The notes beneath the pieces were generated by a model. That model had not been told where the DNA came from. It made no database searches and worked only from the letters and a program-made list of their open reading frames with translations. The translations under genes were made by a program, and so were the position numbers. Shown here one piece after another: positions 3,918 to 51,667 of a DNA stretch of 64,000 nt. Position 1 is the stretch's first letter; the number at the start of each line of letters is the position of its first letter. The stretch comes from a plasmid. Location: assembly GCF_988243305.1 (NCBI RefSeq), contig NZ_OZ547137.1; one strand, 5' to 3'.

Positions 3918-4603
<686 letters not shown>

Positions 4604-44453: not shown

Positions 44454-46262
44454 CTAAAGCATTAGATCTTCAAAATTCAGCGTATGGCTGTGCGGCTTTT
44501 TGCGGAAAGACAGCTCGTTTATACGAAGCTTAAGTGGCATAGGGCAGATCACGCCACTGAATATGCAGGTGCCGGTTGCAAGCGTTGGAATAGATTCTTC
44601 AGTCATGCGGTCTATATAGGAAACGGATTTTTCAATAGCATACAGATCGTTCTGATTTATCAACCGGTGAATGAAATAGTTATGTGCCTGAGAAATGATA
44701 GTCGGGGAGATATCGTTTGGTCGCTGACTGGATATCGTCACAAAGACGCCAAATTTTCTGCCCTCCTTAATTATCTCTTCAAACGTTTCGAGCCGATAAT
44801 CCTTCCAGCTTTCTGATTCCCTGAACGAGGTGTTCGAAAGGATATTGTGTGCTTCGTCTATGATGAGATGGAGAGTGGACGGTACCTTATCCATTTTTTT
44901 TGCTGAATAGGCCCATTTGGCCATTAAAAGTGGTAGCGTTTTTTTCATGGTCAGATTGACCATATTAAGGTTCAGGACAACAAAGTTCGTTTCTGCCCAG
45001 ATGGTTCCGCCGGACGCAGTATTGAAAATTTTACGAGTATCTTTTTTCAGTCCGCTCATTCGATTGATGACAGGAGAAAGATGTTCAGGATTTGAGCGAC
45101 TTGAAAGATATTCAATAATTAGCTGAACATACATATAGTCCAGCAACTCTTCCATTATATCGTCGGGAAATTCATAATTCTGAGCCATCTGGTACATATT
45201 GCACTGATGAGTATTTTCTTCATTAGAAAAGTAAACGCCTGTCTTGGTTCGCCATACGCCGCCGTTGTTATAAAAAAATTCAATATCTGCTATCAGATCT
45301 TCGTCCTTCAGTACAGGACGGAATAAATCAATCAGGTCGTCACTTTTTTTCTTTTCGCAACCAAACAGAGTTTCGGTGACCCGCCGTTTCAGAATTTCAC
45401 GAAAATATGACTGAGGGTTCAGCTTCGACTCCACTCGCTTTTTGAATTCAAGCACTCGCTTCAGAAAAGGTTTCTGCGTTTTGTCGGTGGCATCCGTCAG
45501 GACAGAGATAATCTCATGCTCAAGCAGTATCTCAGCAGGCATCGGAATGCGATCACCCTCTTCATCATGCGTGCTAAGATTATAAACAACCTTGTCGCGC
45601 GTAATGCAGCTTCTCCCACCATATTCACCATTGAAATCAAATAAAAGAAACCGTGACCGACTTCTGAATCCTTCGCCTAGTAGGTTTTTCAGGGCCTCAT
45701 AGCCATGCTGATAAAGCGCGGCCAGAGTATTGGACTTGCCGCTGCCAGTATTACCGAAGATGGCGATGTGTGAGTTGAGAAGGCCGCTTATCGGGAGAGT
45801 GATATCAATATCTTCGAGATCGGTGCGCGAAAAATTCAGCCCGGACTCGCCCGCTGGCGCGATCGAGTGGATAAGATGAAGTTGTTCCTCAGACATCAGA
45901 AAAACTTCATTGCCGATAAGGGGCAACTCGCGAGTTCCACCAGTAAAGCGCCCGTTCCGGTCAATATAGCCTGCCAGTGAGGCTGTAAGATAGCGGCGGA
46001 AGCGAAGCGAATCGCTTCCGCTACCAACAGGTGATTTTTCCTCGACAATCTTCTCGGTTTCTACCTTTGCAATCAGACTCATGAATCCTTTTTTGACTTC
46101 GATGAAACTACCTACTGAAACATTTTTGAGCACCTTACCGTGATAAAAAAGATCACTCAGATTTTTATTTTTATCGACAAGCACACTGAGTGTTCTGCCC
46201 GATACTTCACGAACCTCACCGATCCTTAATACTGCTTCTTCGTTAACAAAAGCGGAGGTCAT
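44454..46262 (-). CDS. herA: HerA-like (FtsK/HerA superfamily) ATPase, partner of the SIR2 gene
   Basis: 602 aa; Walker A GNTGSGKSN and Walker B LIIDEAHN; start overlaps the upstream SIR2 stop (ATGA). Confidence 0.75.
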   Translation of the reverse strand: MTSAFVNEEAVLRIGEVREVSGRTLSVLVDKNKNLSDLFYHGKVLKNVSVGSFIEVKKGFMSLIAKVETEKIVEEKSPVGSGSDSLRFRRYLTASLAGYIDRNGRFTGGTRELPLIGNEVFLMSEEQLHLIHSIAPAGESGLNFSRTDLEDIDITLPISGLLNSHIAIFGNTGSGKSNTLAALYQHGYEALKNLLGEGFRSRSRFLLFDFNGEYGGRSCITRDKVVYNLSTHDEEGDRIPMPAEILLEHEIISVLTDATDKTQKPFLKRVLEFKKRVESKLNPQSYFREILKRRVTETLFGCEKKKSDDLIDLFRPVLKDEDLIADIEFFYNNGGVWRTKTGVYFSNEENTHQCNMYQMAQNYEFPDDIMEELLDYMYVQLIIEYLSSRSNPEHLSPVINRMSGLKKDTRKIFNTASGGTIWAETNFVVLNLNMVNLTMKKTLPLLMAKWAYSAKKMDKVPSTLHLIIDEAHNILSNTSFRESESWKDYRLETFEEIIKEGRKFGVFVTISSQRPNDISPTIISQAHNYFIHRLINQNDLYAIEKSVSYIDRMTEESIPTLATGTCIFSGVICPMPLKLRINELSFRKKPHSHTLNFEDLML

Positions 46263-46905
46263 TTCATACCTCCAAGAAAGCTGGTTATAATTTCATTCAT
46301 CTTTTTGAAGTCCAATGGGGCTCCAGGAGTAAAAACCACATCAACATTGGAATAATCACGGAATTTATCAAGGAATAGGTCTTTAGCCGCCTCATTGTAA
46401 GCGAATATAACAATTTTGAGCGTGGCGTTTCGCAGTGCTTTCTTGGTAAGAGTTTCAATATGCTCATCCGCAAAAGAAAATCCGAAAACTATAAGCAAAG
46501 AGCCTTCTTTATCCAGCTCATTTGAATAAGTCCGTAGCAGGTCGTAATACACGTTTTCAAGTAAGGTTTCACGAAATTTATCCTTTCGCGGCAGAACCAG
46601 TTGATGTGACATAACCCAGTCCTGCTTCTCCTTTGGTGTATTGAACGCAACTGGCTTCATATCCTTAATGGAATAATAGATTTCCTTATCATAGCTATGC
46701 CAAGAAAGGGAACCATGCAGCTTGATGAGATTCACCGTAGGTAGTTCCACGCTGTAATTATAAAGGTTCCCGGTTGCGTGTATGGTCTGATAAAAACATT
46801 TGGTATCGAATACTGTCCGGTTGTAAATATCGGCGCGCTGACGGAATCCTGATCTTACCCAGCAATAGTGGACACGCGGCTAAGTGAGTAAACTCTCAGT
46901 CAGAG

Positions 46906-47214
46906 GTGACTCACATGACAAAAACAGTATCAACCAGTAAAAAACCCCGTAAACAGCATTCGCCTGAATTTCGCAGTGAAGCCCTGAAGCTTGCTGAACG
47001 CATCGGTGTTACTGCCGCAGCCCGTGAACTCAGCCTGTATGAATCACAGCTCTACAACTGGCGCAGTAAACAGCAAAATCAGCAGACGTCTTCTGAACGT
47101 GAACTGGAGATGTCTACCGAGATTGCACGTCTCAAACGCCAGCTGGCAGAACGGGATGAAGAGCTGGCTATCCTCCAAAAGGCCGCGACATACTTCGCGA
47201 AGCGCCTGAAATGA
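46906..47214 (+). CDS. insE: IS3 OrfA
   Basis: Identical protein to 7625..7933. Confidence 0.95.
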
Positions 47215-48077
47215 AGTATGTCTTTATTGAAAAACATCAGGCTGAGTTCAGCATCAAAGCAATGTGCCGCGTGCTCCGGGTGGCCCGCAGCGGCTGGTAT
47301 ACGTGGTGTCAGCGGCGGACAAGGATAAGCACGCGTCAGCAGTTCCGCCAACACTGCGACAGCGTTGTCCTCGCGGCTTTTACCCGGTCAAAACAGCGTT
47401 ACGGTGCCCCACGCCTGACGGATGAACTGCGTGCTCAGGGTTACCCCTTTAACGTAAAAACCGTGGCGGCAAGCCTGCGCCGTCAGGGACTGAGGGCAAA
47501 GGCCTCCCGGAAGTTCAGCCCGGTCAGCTACCGCGCACACGGCCTGCCTGTGTCAGAAAATCTGTTGGAGCAGGATTTTTACGCCAGTGGCCCGAACCAG
47601 AAGTGGGCAGGAGACATCACGTACTTACGTACAGATGAAGGCTGGCTGTATCTGGCAGTGGTCATTGACCTGTGGTCACGTGCCGTTATTGGCTGGTCAA
47701 TGTCGCCACGCATGACGGCGCAACTGGCCTGCGATGCCCTGCAGATGGCGCTGTGGCGGCGTAAGAGGCCCCGGAACGTTATCGTTCACACGGACCGTGG
47801 AGGCCAGTACTGTTCAGCAGATTATCAGGCGCAACTGAAGCGGCATAATCTGCGTGGAAGTATGAGCGCAAAAGGTTGCTGCTACGATAATGCCTGCGTG
47901 GAAAGCTTCTTTCATTCGCTGAAAGTGGAATGTATCCATGGAGAACACTTTATCAGCCGGGAAATAATGCGGGCAACGGTGTTTAATTATATCGAATGTG
48001 ATTACAATCGGTGGCGGCGGCACAGTTGGTGTGGCGGCCTCAGTCCGGAACAATTTGAAAACAAGAACCTCGCTTAG
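47211..48077 (+). CDS. insF: IS3 OrfB
   Basis: Identical protein to 7930..8796. Confidence 0.95.
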
Positions 48078-48734
48078 GCCTGTGTCCATATTACGTGGGT
48101 AGGATCATCCATCATTCAGAATGACGTTGTTATTTTTAACCGCTGCATCCTCAATGAACAAATCATAGTTAGTCGTAAAGAGGTTGATACGCCGCGGTAG
48201 CAATCCAGTCCGCCGCCTCGTCAGAAGCATTTCTAATGCACGCATGAGCTTCGCGTAGTTGTTTTGTGTCGATACGACATCATCTATTAAAGTAGGAAGG
48301 ATTACCTCTGCGGGCAAGCTTCGCTTCAGGAGGACGTTGTTTGCCTTCCATACATTGTCCAGAAAAGACTCAGATTTACTGAAGTATTCATCATCCTTTC
48401 CGGCGCGGACCAGAGCCTCAAGCTCGCTTTCAATATCACCTAACACGCTGATTGCAGGCAGCGATGCTCCTGAGCCAATGATGAAATTGATGTTTGCTGA
48501 TTGAAATATGCGCTCAAAATATTCACGATCTCTGTCCTGCCCGTAGTAAGCCCGATAAGTCGCCACGCTGTGCCTTTCCTTAAATATCGTAGATAAGATG
48601 TATCTTACATGTTTCAACAAGTGATGCATCCTGTTTAAATTTCATTCTCTGACTCATATACAAACGCAGCTAAACGAATCAGGTAGGTAGTTTCATTGCT
48701 TCCGGCTTCACCAGAAACCGGATCTGACCTAGAA

Positions 48735-48818
48735 AAGAGAAAGAGTGTATGTAAGTTCTGTACTGTATGTATGGTATGTATGAATTGTATTGTATGTATT
48801 ATTTGTATTGTATGTATT
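48735..48818. repeat. degenerate TGTATG / TTGTATG tandem repeat array in a divergent intergenic region
   Basis: gtgtatgtaagttctgtactgtatgtatggtatgtatgaattgtattgtatgtattatttgtattgtatgtattgtgtat, between the SIR2 start and the KfrA-like gene. Confidence 0.8.
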
Positions 48819-48877
48819 GTGTATTTTTCATACCGGGCGTACGATGGCGCCATTCCCTGAGAAACCGGAGCCAGACC

Positions 48878-49489
48878 ATGACATCCCTCTCCCCGGACAC
48901 CGTCCGCCGCATTGAAGACGCCGCCGCCGCCCTGATCGCCGCCGGCACCCCGAACCCGACCAACGAGCAGGTCCGTCAGCACCTCGGCGGCGGCTCGCTG
49001 TCCCACATCTCCCCGGTGATGCGCGCGTTCCGCGCCCGCCAGCGCGAGCAGGCCACTGAGCAGGCCACGCCCCTGCCGCCGGAGCTGGCGCAGCTGCTGA
49101 CCGGCCAGCTGGGGCTGCTGTGGCAGGCGGCCGTGAAACAGGCTGAAGCCGGGGCCCTGGCGGCGCGCGAGCAGGCCGACGACGACATTGCCCGGGCCGA
49201 CAAGGAGCGGGATGAGGCGCTGGCGAACGTGGCCGCGCTGGAAAGCGAGCTGGCGGTGCTGCGCGAGGTGGTGGCCGAACGTGACCGCCTGCTGCAGGAG
49301 GTACGCGAGCTGCGCGCGGAAGCGCTGCCGCTGCGCGAGCAGGTGGCCCGCCTGACCGCCACCGGCGAACACCTGGCGGCGCAGCTGCAGGACACGAAGG
49401 CGGAGCTGAAGGAAGCCCGGGAGGACGGCCGCCAGCTTCAGACCGAACTGCTGGCTCTGGCCCGCCAGGACGGGAAGGTGAAGAAATGA
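48878..49489 (+). CDS. KfrA-like DNA-binding protein (N-terminal HTH, long Ala/Arg/Glu-rich coiled coil)
   Basis: MTSLSPDTVRRIEDAAAALIAAG...GGGSLSHISPVMRAFRARQ resembles the KfrA N-terminal domain; ~70% GC; start at ATG 48878 with upstream GGAG. Confidence 0.65.
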   Translation: MTSLSPDTVRRIEDAAAALIAAGTPNPTNEQVRQHLGGGSLSHISPVMRAFRARQREQATEQATPLPPELAQLLTGQLGLLWQAAVKQAEAGALAAREQADDDIARADKERDEALANVAALESELAVLREVVAERDRLLQEVRELRAEALPLREQVARLTATGEHLAAQLQDTKAELKEAREDGRQLQTELLALARQDGKVKK

Positions 49490-50106
49490 GACAGGAAAGA
49501 GTATTACGTATAAAGGCATTTCGACGGGCACTGGAGCTTGGTGGCGGTGAACGGGCTGACGGGTGTCGTCATTTTCCCCGCTGGAAAACGGAACTGAGGA
49601 ATTTCCCGCACGGCAGCTGCGATTTAGCCAGCAATACTCTGGCGTACTACCTCAAGGAACGAGAGAGATGCCATCCGTGCATCATTTTTATGGAAGGGAA
49701 CGCTGGCTTTCATGAAGCGGAAAACTCAACAGTTCACGGGCATGTCATCGTATTGCTGGACGGAGAGTACATCGATTTGACGCTGGATCAATTCGACGAA
49801 TATCCGGACTACATTCCTTACGAACCAGTCGAATCTGACGGGCAGATTGGTAAGCTGTTGCGTAATATCATGAAGCATGAGGACCAGGTAAAAACCCGCC
49901 AGATTGATCTCGATGGTGGCGAAGAGCTGTATGCCTGGTTACGCGATACCGCCGACGAAGTGCTGGCAGCAGATCCGGAATGGCAGGCCCGGGAACGGTC
50001 GATAGAAGAAGCAAGGGAAGCCGCTATTACGGTGTTCCCGTTTCTGTCTGACGTGCAAAAAACTGAGTGCGAACAGGGCCCGGACAGTCAGGAGGCTGCC
50101 AGATGA
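49486..50106 (+). CDS. hypothetical protein (206 aa), translationally coupled
   Basis: ATGA overlap with the KfrA-like stop; no family recognised (possible Cys/His catalytic-like core SCDLAS...HGHVIVLLDGEYIDL). Confidence 0.5.
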   Translation: MRQERVLRIKAFRRALELGGGERADGCRHFPRWKTELRNFPHGSCDLASNTLAYYLKERERCHPCIIFMEGNAGFHEAENSTVHGHVIVLLDGEYIDLTLDQFDEYPDYIPYEPVESDGQIGKLLRNIMKHEDQVKTRQIDLDGGEELYAWLRDTADEVLAADPEWQARERSIEEAREAAITVFPFLSDVQKTECEQGPDSQEAAR

Positions 50107-50891
50107 AGATTTATCATTACACTGACCTGAACGGCCTGAAGGGCATCATCGAATCAGGCTCACTGTGGGCGACGCACTTTTCCTTTCTCAATGACAGTAA
50201 TGAGCTGACTCACGGCATGAACTGCCTTGAGAATGCCCTGCAGTACCTGAGGGACGACTTTAACCCGAAAACCCTTAAGTTCATCGAACAGGCACTGACG
50301 CACTTCAGAATGCACCGGGCAGCTCACGTCTATAACCTTTCGTTCTGTCTCGAACCCGACCTGTTAAGCCAGTGGCGGGGTTATGGGAGCTCTCAGGGCG
50401 TGTGCCTGGAATTTGATGATGAAGAGCTGCTTGCCTCGCTGGAATTAACTCATTATCAGGTGTTTAAAAACCGGGTACTCTATACCAAAGAGGATTCCAC
50501 GGTTGAAGCCCGGAACGAAATCCTCGCCTTCTTTCGTCAGCCACATGTTCAGGCGGCAATAAATGCAGATGTAATGCATGAGATGATTCAGGCAACCAGA
50601 CTGGCACACAGCCTGCCGCCTTTTTTCAAGAATGACGGTTTCCAAGAGGAGCAGGAGTTCAGGATGGTAATCCTTCCGGAAAGCCCTTTTGAGGGTGTCA
50701 ATTTTCGTGTCAATGACAGCGGTCTGGTACCATATCTGATCATTAAAGCAAAAGACAAGCTGCCACTGACAAACGTCAGAATTGGTCCCCGCAGTAACAG
50801 AGCAATGATGATGGACGGGATTTCATTCCTGTTGCAGAGCAGGGGGTATACCAGTACACGGATTTCGTTTACTGAGACGCCGTTCCGGTAA
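50103..50891 (+). CDS. DUF2971-like protein (262 aa)
   Basis: N-terminus MKIYHYTDLNGLKGIIESGSLWATHFSFLNDSNE resembles the DUF2971 signature; ATGA overlap with the upstream ORF. Confidence 0.55.
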   Translation: MKIYHYTDLNGLKGIIESGSLWATHFSFLNDSNELTHGMNCLENALQYLRDDFNPKTLKFIEQALTHFRMHRAAHVYNLSFCLEPDLLSQWRGYGSSQGVCLEFDDEELLASLELTHYQVFKNRVLYTKEDSTVEARNEILAFFRQPHVQAAINADVMHEMIQATRLAHSLPPFFKNDGFQEEQEFRMVILPESPFEGVNFRVNDSGLVPYLIIKAKDKLPLTNVRIGPRSNRAMMMDGISFLLQSRGYTSTRISFTETPFR

Positions 50892-50926
50892 ATTCAGTTA
50901 AGAAGCACAAACTTCTAGGGATCAGT

Positions 50927-51667
50927 ATGTTGAATAAAGTTTCACAAATTAATTTGGCCAAAATACTGGCTGAAAAATTTAACGAAGGTGACTGGCAGGA
51001 GCTGTTTGCTGTTACAGATTGTGAAGACGTTCCGGAAGGACTAAATCAATTCTACCGGCATGTTCACTGGGACAACCCTGAGCTGAAAGGGGTGGCCATC
51101 GCTGCCATAGAAAGCACTCTGGCCAGGGACGCTGATAATCTTTCTAAGATCTGGGCGCTGGATAATGTTCAACGCTTTATCAGCATTGCCAATACTGAGT
51201 TATTCAATGAAATAAAGAACATTGTGAATCAGAACGGGCAAAGAAATGTTTCGGCAGCACCAGTGAAAAATGTAAATGAAAACATTTACCAGGCCTTAGA
51301 AGATGCGGAAGTGTTGCTTAAAAATAATGGGCCACACCGGGCATATGATCGTGTTCATACAGCTCTTCATGCTTCATTAAGACAAATGTGTGCCAACCAT
51401 GGAATTGCGACCAATAGTACAAATGATAATGTTCCAGGCTTGCTTTCTCTGATAACTGCACATCTCAAAGACCTGCCTGATGATGGAAGAAATGAAGATG
51501 TGTTTAAAATGTTGAGATCATCTGCCGCAATACTTCATGGGATCAATAACCTGCGTAACAATTACAGCATGGCCCATCCTACTGAAACTTTGCTGAATGA
51601 AGCCGATGCCCGTTTTGCCATAAATCTGGTTCGTTCCATCATGACTTATGTTGATGAGTTGCTTTAG
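50927..51667 (+). CDS. hypothetical protein (246 aa), possible Abi_C-like C-terminal domain
   Basis: C-terminal HGINNLRNNYSMAHP region is loosely reminiscent of abortive-infection C-terminal domains; inference only. Confidence 0.45.
   Translation: MLNKVSQINLAKILAEKFNEGDWQELFAVTDCEDVPEGLNQFYRHVHWDNPELKGVAIAAIESTLARDADNLSKIWALDNVQRFISIANTELFNEIKNIVNQNGQRNVSAAPVKNVNENIYQALEDAEVLLKNNGPHRAYDRVHTALHASLRQMCANHGIATNSTNDNVPGLLSLITAHLKDLPDDGRNEDVFKMLRSSAAILHGINNLRNNYSMAHPTETLLNEADARFAINLVRSIMTYVDELL

Follow-up and report, generated by a model that had tools for sequence, protein, structure and literature searches.

Why a dense tract of short TGTAT-type repeats fills the region between a gene for a KfrA-like DNA-binding protein and a divergent SIR2 gene is the question raised by this locus of an E. 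coli IncF (FIA/FIB-type) plasmid, of which a stretch of 64,000 nucleotides (the window) was analysed. A first-pass annotation had proposed that the repeats could be operator sites of the KfrA-like protein, or a slippage-prone tract affecting expression of both divergent units. Searches of the literature on KfrA with IncF or pO157, and on the motif string, returned no account of the IncF repeats.

Repeat array upstream of the kfrA-like gene

A direct-repeat array with a unit of 9 nt, proposed here to be a KfrA-type (O_K-like) operator, was located at 48746..48828 on the plus strand. It was composed of a half unit TGTA (48746), eight units U1-U8 (48750-48821) and a trailing partial unit TGTATTTTT starting at 48820. 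The tract had been recognized in the first-pass annotation at 48735-48818, which is slightly offset, and described as about a dozen repeats of 5-7 bp; the number agreed with the 11 TGTAT pentamers counted, while the unit was in fact 9 nt (TGTAT + TGTA). When read in the register used for plasmid RA3, all eight units opened with TGTA, namely U1 (TGTAAGTTC, 48750), U2 (TGTACTGTA, 48759), U3 (TGTATGGTA, 48768), U4 (TGTATGAAT, 48777), U5 (48786..48794, plus strand), U6 (TGTATTATT, 48795), U7 (48804..48812, plus strand) and U8 (TGTATTGTG, 48813). U5 and U7 were exact copies of the consensus TGTATTGTA, three units carried one mismatch and three were weaker.

The period was found by several methods. 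Tandem Repeats Finder gave period 9, 6.9 copies and 76% matches to TGTATTGTA at 48759-48820, with a second call of period 18 at 48746-48820, and a repeat search placed the copies 9, 9, 9 and 18 nt apart. Base autocorrelation had its maxima at lags of 9 (0.63), 18 (0.70) and 27 (0.64), other lags giving about 0.2-0.45. TGTAT occurred 11 times in 91 nt, while 2000 shuffles of the tract with dinucleotides preserved contained 2.8 on average and never more than 8. Allowing up to one mismatch, TGTATTGTA was matched six times within 80 nt, a number that did not exceed 3 in any of 300 shuffles made of the whole 64-kb window. The only two exact copies in the window both lay inside the array. As to orientation, 12 TGTA[TC] and no [AG]TACA were present upstream of the kfrA-like gene. 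The 200-nt windows covering the tract had 36-43% G+C, and single-strand folding of the tract gave no structure (-0.1 kcal/mol, z +1.2), so hairpin and terminator readings were dropped.

TGTAT/ATACA were locally in excess at just one other place in the window (22154-22225, 5 in 150 nt), which was considered as a second KfrA site and rejected. Its copies were spaced by about 22 nt, and since the cluster was inside an AT-rich AraC-family coding region and had no 9-nt register, it was judged to be due to chance. The AraC-family gene at this place is Rns/CfaD-like, which suggests an ETEC plasmid.

KfrA-like protein and its start codon

The kfrA-like gene (48878..49489, plus strand) encoded a protein of 203 aa with a KfrA_N HTH domain (Pfam PF11740, E 2.1e-21, residues 10-125) and one long helix, as revealed by Pfam, the alignment with IncU KfrA and an AF2 model. 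Residues 1-160 shared 44.5% identity with KfrA of pFBAOT6, a close IncU relative which was used as the stand-in for RA3 (DQ401103) in sequence comparisons. The AF2 model (pLDDT 91.6) contained helices at residues 6-21, 29-36, 41-62 and 68-202, that is, a three-helix HTH head and then a single helical tail of about 135 residues (68-202), shorter than the tail of about 290 residues in RA3 KfrA. The sole PDB and NCBIfam matches of the tail were weak and were to coiled-coil or SMC-like proteins; the PDB search returned no solved KfrA_N structure and only coiled-coil matches, and no relatives were found when IMG/VR viral contigs were scanned with the KfrA alignment. The G+C content of the gene, 73-76% as compared with about 40-55% for the plasmid, is a trait kept across enterobacterial plasmids, which points to a high-G+C donor or to compositional bias from an Ala/Arg/Glu-rich coiled coil.

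In RA3 KfrA the HTH contacts are made by R33, S40, S42, S45 and R49, and W51 is essential (PMC7783346). The segment N29-R52 was nearly identical between the window protein and RA3-type KfrA, with R33, S40, S45 and R49 invariant in the HTH alignment. S42 was common to the window protein and the RA3-type KfrA of pFBAOT6, and A42 was found in two enterobacterial homologues. Position 51, which is W in RA3, was F throughout the enterobacterial clade, the window included.

In the open reading frame track the kfrA-like frame reaches back to ATG 48767, while the real start of the gene was identified as ATG 48878. The frame between them (48767..48877, plus strand; MYGMYELYCMYYLY...) is an in-frame read-through of the repeats. 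The view of the first-pass annotation that the MYGMYELYC extension is spurious was borne out, as 15 of 29 homologous loci came to a stop with no in-frame upstream ATG before it. Several database records treat the tract as coding for a genuine N-terminal extension, and this finds some backing in an upstream frame that stays open for 37 codons, ATGs included, in array indels whose units are multiples of three, and in the inclusion of the extension in pO157p27 (227 aa) and QMQ44000.1 (231 aa). Yet a Shine-Dalgarno sequence GGAG (48867..48870, plus strand), kept in homologues, stands 7 nt before ATG 48878, M1 at this place lines up with M1 of IncU KfrA, the predicted promoter falls within the supposed extension, and one close relative has an indel of -11 nt in the tract. 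With half of the homologues also lacking the upstream start, a coding role of the tract is hardly credible at all. Start codons have been placed inside the array (227-231 aa) in pO157p27 / NP_052633.1, WP_010891291.1, QMQ44000.1 and QMP61989.1, and WP_000202889.1 is the 203-aa form; the long annotated forms are very likely wrong.

Putative promoter

A putative -35 element TTGTGT (48817..48822, plus strand), embedded in U8, and a putative -10 element TACGAT (48840..48845, plus strand) were recognized from conservation in the enterobacterial loci. Of 19 homologous loci from enterobacteria, 17 had TTGTGT-17 nt-TAnnnT and an 18th had TTCTGT-17-TAGAAT; the broader pattern T(T/C)GT(G/T)T-16/17 nt-TAnnnT was observed in 18 of the 19, with a 16-nt spacer in one locus. 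TACGAT, TACCAT, TAAAAT, TAAGGT, TACAAT, TAAGAT, TAGAAT, TACTAT and TACACT all occurred as the -10 hexamer. Since the hexamer varies while T1, A2 and T6 are fixed, and the 17-nt spacing is kept, it behaves as a -10 element. A consensus promoter and terminator scan of 48500-49000 gave nothing at the threshold of 9 of 12, and in a lower-threshold scan the putative -35/-10 pair scored 7 of 12, which is weak. With the promoter deduced from conservation, transcription is predicted to start near 48852. No repeat unit flanks the putative -10, and the gap from the array to the ATG in the window was 53 nt.

Comparison with known KfrA operators and partition sites

The operator O_K of plasmid RA3 consists of five 9-nt TGTATTGTA repeats which overlap kfrAp and were found by EMSA and reporter assays to be bound by KfrA (PMC7783346). 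Its order is three direct units embedding the -35 TTGTAT, the -10 TAAAAT, and two inverted units (PMC7783346). In EMSA three repeats were bound weakly and four fully, and four in the same orientation almost as well as wild type; in vivo three to four repeats gave full repression, and the stability of RA3 needs the binding of KfrA to O_K (PMC7783346). Polymerisation of RA3 KfrA on O_K DNA gives filaments (PMC7821693). O_K was called unique by its authors (PMC7783346).

The window array and the O_K of RA3/pFBAOT6 were alike in that the unit TGTATTGTA is the same, the repeats abut and they embed the -35, a putative one in the window; the sequence upstream of pFBAOT6 kfrA reproduced the published RA3 layout. 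The proteins were alike as well, each a KfrA_N homologue with a helical tail and with R33, S40, S42, S45 and R49 as contact residues, and the number of units in the window reaches the at least three to four that RA3 KfrA needs for binding and repression. The architecture was different. In RA3 three direct and two inverted units flank the -10 and end about 13 nt before the ATG, whereas the window has eight direct units only, all of them upstream of or on the putative -35 and 53 nt from the ATG, and so lacks the mixed orientation with an inverted arm. The window protein has 203 aa with F51, against 345 aa with the essential W51 in RA3 KfrA. The linkage of the IncU/IncP kfr module (kfrC or kfrB-kfrC, korA-incC-korB) was not found either; the operon here continues into orf206, a DUF2971 gene and an AbiJ-like gene, and in pFBAOT6 genes for TrfB/KorA and a ParA-type ATPase come right after kfrA. 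Judged by its sequence, the IncF array belongs with the RA3-type KfrA/O_K autoregulatory system, of which it is a variant in architecture.

For IncP-1 plasmids, the KfrA site of RK2 is a 24-nt imperfect palindrome, and in R751, where KorA and KorB act as co-repressors and iterated motifs have been reported as the target of KfrA, the site spans the -10 as an extended inverted repeat (PMC7783346, PMC7821693). An autoregulatory KfrA on a site overlapping its own promoter would be common to these plasmids and the window, but the sequence motifs differ, going by the published descriptions.

As the period of 9 nt is off the helical repeat, proteins bound to the array would spiral around the DNA. Short direct-repeat arrays overlapping the promoter of the binder's operon are known from ParR-parC (R1), TubR-tubC and the omega heptads, and short-repeat centromere binders of this kind coat the array cooperatively, which doubles as autoregulation. 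The locus differs from parC/tubC-like centromeres in that the operon is without ParM, TubZ or ParA and the binder carries its own long coiled-coil tail. The analogy to TubR has been drawn for KfrA (PMC7783346).

Two architectures in homologous loci

A total of 52 loci with KfrA homologues were compared (18 from plasmid records, the other 34 from usable contigs of GTDB genomes), with hosts from Enterobacterales to Halomonas and Oceanospirillum and of very different G+C. At least four TGTAT/ATACA were present within 150 nt upstream of the start codon in 51 of the 52, against a maximum of 3 in 3945 other 150-nt windows taken as background. In the exception (L029, Photorhabdus) the array is in front of a small ORF preceding kfrA, so TGTA-type repeats accompanied kfrA in 52/52. 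The region in question (1215-1514, Photorhabdus thracensis chromosome) contains a palindromic TGTA-type array and then an ORF of about 73 aa (ATG 1293) which overlaps the kfrA start.

Two architectures were revealed. The recognition helix ended in REW in 26 loci (RA3/IncU, Vibrio, Halomonas/Vreelandella, Haliea, Oceanospirillum and others), where the array was a compact palindrome TGTATTGTATGTA...TACATACAATACATACA, mostly 33-51 nt long and usually ending 11-18 nt before the ATG. In the other 26, loci of Enterobacterales which include the window and pO157, the helix ended in RAF and only direct repeats were found; the 7-14 pentamers extended over 52-146 nt, and the usual distance from their end to the ATG was about 53 nt. 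Inverted pentamers numbered 0-3 in the enterobacterial clade versus 2-6 in the RA3-type clade. The pairing of E50-W51 with compact palindromes and of A50-F51 with long direct-only arrays had no exceptions among the 52 loci. Since W51 is essential in RA3 and was proposed for dimer contacts, the switch at positions 50-51 may reflect a changed binding geometry.

One of the loci (L021, JAIJJM010000018.1, "MAG: Collinsella sp.") is a 14-kb contig on which the IncF kfrA-like module has 98% identity at the protein level and the array, of 6 units, is the same as in E. coli plasmid pE7476_162. This contig, assigned to Collinsella (Actinomycetota), almost certainly comes from an Enterobacterales plasmid and was binned wrongly.

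Variation of array length

In the alignment of close relatives, the flanks and the promoter-proximal units TGTATTGTGTATTTTT were invariant and the distal units differed in number. The indels relative to the window were all within the array, with -9 nt in K. pneumoniae pTK421_1, -11 nt in pRHB06-C19_2, -18 nt in two plasmids and -27 nt in pO157; the window has 8 units, pO157 has 5 and relatives have up to about 11. When repeat number was compared across related plasmids, as had been suggested at the outset, lineages were found to differ, while the 46 pO157-type records in a spread sample of the matches listed all had the same 165-nt version. The array indels are upstream of the putative -35, so the -35/-10 spacing is unaltered.

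The slippage-prone tract of the first-pass annotation is supported as far as whole-unit differences between lineages are concerned, and not by the identical pO157-type records or by the promoter spacing, which is unaffected. In its strong form the idea would be a contingency locus, in which a hypermutable slippage tract switches expression by its length, and the clean whole-unit indels (-9, -18 and -27 nt) that set plasmid lineages apart would suit it. However, the units are 9 nt long and degenerate, the 46 listed pO157-type records lack the length heterogeneity of phase-variable loci, and the indels lie 5' of the -35, with no effect on spacing or on any reading frame in use, so that switching of this kind is very unlikely. 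A length which differs between lineages and is fixed within pO157 indicates slow repeat turnover instead of phase variation.

Plasmid setting

The same 871 nt were shared by 598 PLSDB plasmids and by 349 complete E. coli genomes, where their location was almost always a plasmid. To the right of the array the order is the operon of the kfrA-like gene, orf206, the DUF2971 gene and the AbiJ-like gene, then a DUF3800 gene and RepFIB; to the left are parM/stbB-like genes, a ParA/CopG pair, a resolvase, ccdAB and the SIR2-HerA cassette.

The second gene of the operon, orf206 (49486..50106, plus strand), is translationally coupled to the kfrA-like gene, its start overlapping the kfrA-like stop, and it followed the kfrA-like gene in 18 of 25 other enterobacterial-clade loci with 39-100% identity. 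It had no match in Pfam, NCBIfam, PADLOC or PHROG, and Foldseek against PDB was not significant (best E 0.46). The top Foldseek matches, below significance, were arylamine N-acetyltransferase, CHAP endolysin and Legionella Ceg10/AnkH, which are enzymes of Cys-His-Asp fold; in orf206 C45, located at the N-terminus of a helix, H86 and D97 were invariant, and D101 was almost invariant. The product may be a papain-like enzyme or a partner of KfrA. The third gene (50103..50891, plus strand) was assigned to the DUF2971 family by annotation of related plasmids and by phrog_1762 (E 1e-24), and the fourth (50927..51667, plus strand) to an AbiJ-like "abortive infection family" by PADLOC (AbiJ, E 3e-9) and annotation. 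These two genes (50103-51667) form the operon end in many plasmids and are truncated or absent in pO157. They may be a candidate defence pair under the control of the KfrA-like protein.

On the left side, an N-terminal fragment of SIR2 from a SIR2-HerA defence cassette was identified at 48105..48566 on the minus strand (PADLOC SIR2 PDLC04080, profile positions 2-152). An IS3 element (46751-48104; ORFs 46906-47214 and 47211-48077) splits SIR2, and PADLOC found profile positions 186-346 at 46262-46750 and HerA at 44454-46262 (E 1.8e-221). The cassette is intact in plasmid CP058026. The probable start of SIR2 is GTG 48566, which is the one annotated in CP058026 and coincides with the beginning of the PADLOC profile, and not ATG 48629 of the longest ORF; this start would lengthen the divergent intergenic region from 248 to about 311 nt.

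The left limit of the sequence common to other plasmids is at about 48701-48710, close to the left end of the array. An inverted repeat is found at this left edge of the kfrA module (48701..48724); it reads TCCGG...CCGGA here, with the left arm replaced, and in most plasmids GATCCG-N14-CGGATC with two GATC (Dam) sites and a variable loop (for example 3990-4017 in locus L007). Plasmid-specific cargo begins exactly at this repeat. An intrinsic terminator was considered and rejected, since the folding of the repeat is weak (-6 kcal/mol) and a T-run is lacking; its role may be that of a protein site, of a hotspot for recombination or insertion, or of a Dam/SeqA site. The left neighbour varies, being ccdAB in pO157, CBASS + IS3 in p504239_155, Ppl in a K. 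oxytoca plasmid, and others, and the records in which SIR2-HerA adjoins the array are few. Because the shared sequence starts left of the repeats and the left neighbour varies, the repeats go with the kfrA-like gene and not with SIR2, and an effect on both divergent units, as initially proposed, finds weak support. The slot between ccd/resolvase and the array held SIR2-HerA, CBASS (SMODS + S-4TM), Ppl, P-loop NTPases or nothing in the plasmids of loci L001, L002, L005, L007-L011 and L017, and it looks like a defence-island hotspot of IncF plasmids.

Function of the array

The tract is likely to be the binding site and operator of the adjacent KfrA-like protein. Of the readings in the first-pass annotation this was the best supported one, with a consensus equal to the RA3 repeat, R33, S40, S42, S45 and R49 retained, and co-occurrence in 52/52 loci. 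The array lies on the promoter of a KfrA homologue and its consensus is a defined KfrA motif, which argues for the operator identity, as do the conserved promoter-like element, the invariant proximal units and a tract that is unstructured and non-coding. The weak 7-of-12 promoter, the architecture unlike RA3 and F51 in place of the essential W51 count against it. Binding and repression are attributed to the window protein by homology, and filament nucleation likewise by inference.

Dimers of the 203-aa KfrA-like protein would bind adjoining units cooperatively, with the helical tail of about 135 residues driving oligomerisation. Occupancy would cover the putative -35 TTGTGT (48817-48822) in the last unit and the DNA upstream, and this coverage would repress the protein's own operon of kfrA-like, orf206, DUF2971 and AbiJ-like genes. 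As there is no inverted arm and no unit past the -10, repression would have to come from blocking the -35 and the DNA before it; such simple occlusion of the -35 is probable too, held with somewhat less confidence than the operator identity, and an array upstream of the -35 could in principle activate instead of repress. The long upstream array would give extra cooperative sites, probably nucleating a KfrA filament, and may aid plasmid maintenance as in RA3. Units would be gained or lost occasionally through slippage or recombination between repeats, which would explain the array lengths differing among plasmid lineages.

Other explanations were weighed against the operator. The array could be a centromere-like or positioning site where a KfrA filament nucleates and anchors the plasmid, autoregulation being secondary; RA3 stability needs the KfrA-O_K interaction and KfrA forms filaments on O_K (PMC7783346, PMC7821693), the 8 units (up to about 11 in relatives) exceed the three to four which RA3 repression needs, and the module is in the maintenance region between ccd/resolvase and RepFIB. 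Against this stand the want of an NTPase motor, korB/incC or kfrC in or beside the operon and the 5 units that suffice for pO157, and anchoring as the main role, which is compatible with an operator, is considered possible but on balance improbable. Generic AT-rich or curved DNA of H-NS or UP-element type, having no specific binder, would agree with tract windows of 36-43% G+C beside a gene of 73-76% G+C, but the strict 9-nt register, a motif identical to a defined operator, conservation in 52 loci from hosts of very different G+C and the palindromic form in distant relatives make it highly improbable.

A leftward promoter in the array would turn it into a bidirectional gate, with KfrA controlling also the left cargo, here SIR2-HerA. 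The reverse complement of the unit, TACAATACA, contains a near-consensus -10 TACAAT, so leftward promoters within the array are conceivable; candidates score 8 of 12, for example with the -10 at 48794-48789, and the left neighbours are mostly on the minus strand. Matches this weak are expected in AT-rich repeats, however, and the scan found no promoter at its threshold, the left neighbour is unrelated between plasmids, and between the array and the SIR2 start (48566) there are about 180 nt and a conserved inverted repeat, so the gate is regarded as unlikely. A broader joint reading is equally doubtful. By this reading the TGTA 9-nt code and the helix GSLSHISPVMR are common to KfrA of unrelated plasmids (IncF/pO157, IncU, marine Halomonas, Vibrio, Oceanospirillum), so that co-resident plasmids could cross-repress or compete for each other's KfrA, and the enterobacterial direct-only array, with the change from E50W51 to A50F51, would nucleate an accessory-anchor filament and could gate both sides of a defence-cargo hotspot (SIR2-HerA, CBASS and Ppl on one side, DUF2971/AbiJ-like on the other).

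The mechanism of an operator of this kind is not new, and a site of an already known kind would be unsurprising to plasmid biologists. What the analysis offers is a likely function for a conspicuous repeat tract on hundreds of IncF plasmids, including the O157:H7 virulence plasmid pO157, and a corrected start codon for the kfrA-like gene, several records of which carry 24-28 extra residues read through the operator. The RA3 operator, "unique" to its discoverers, becomes a family-wide feature in two architectures, and these make plasmid cross-talk and the role of residue 51 directly testable.
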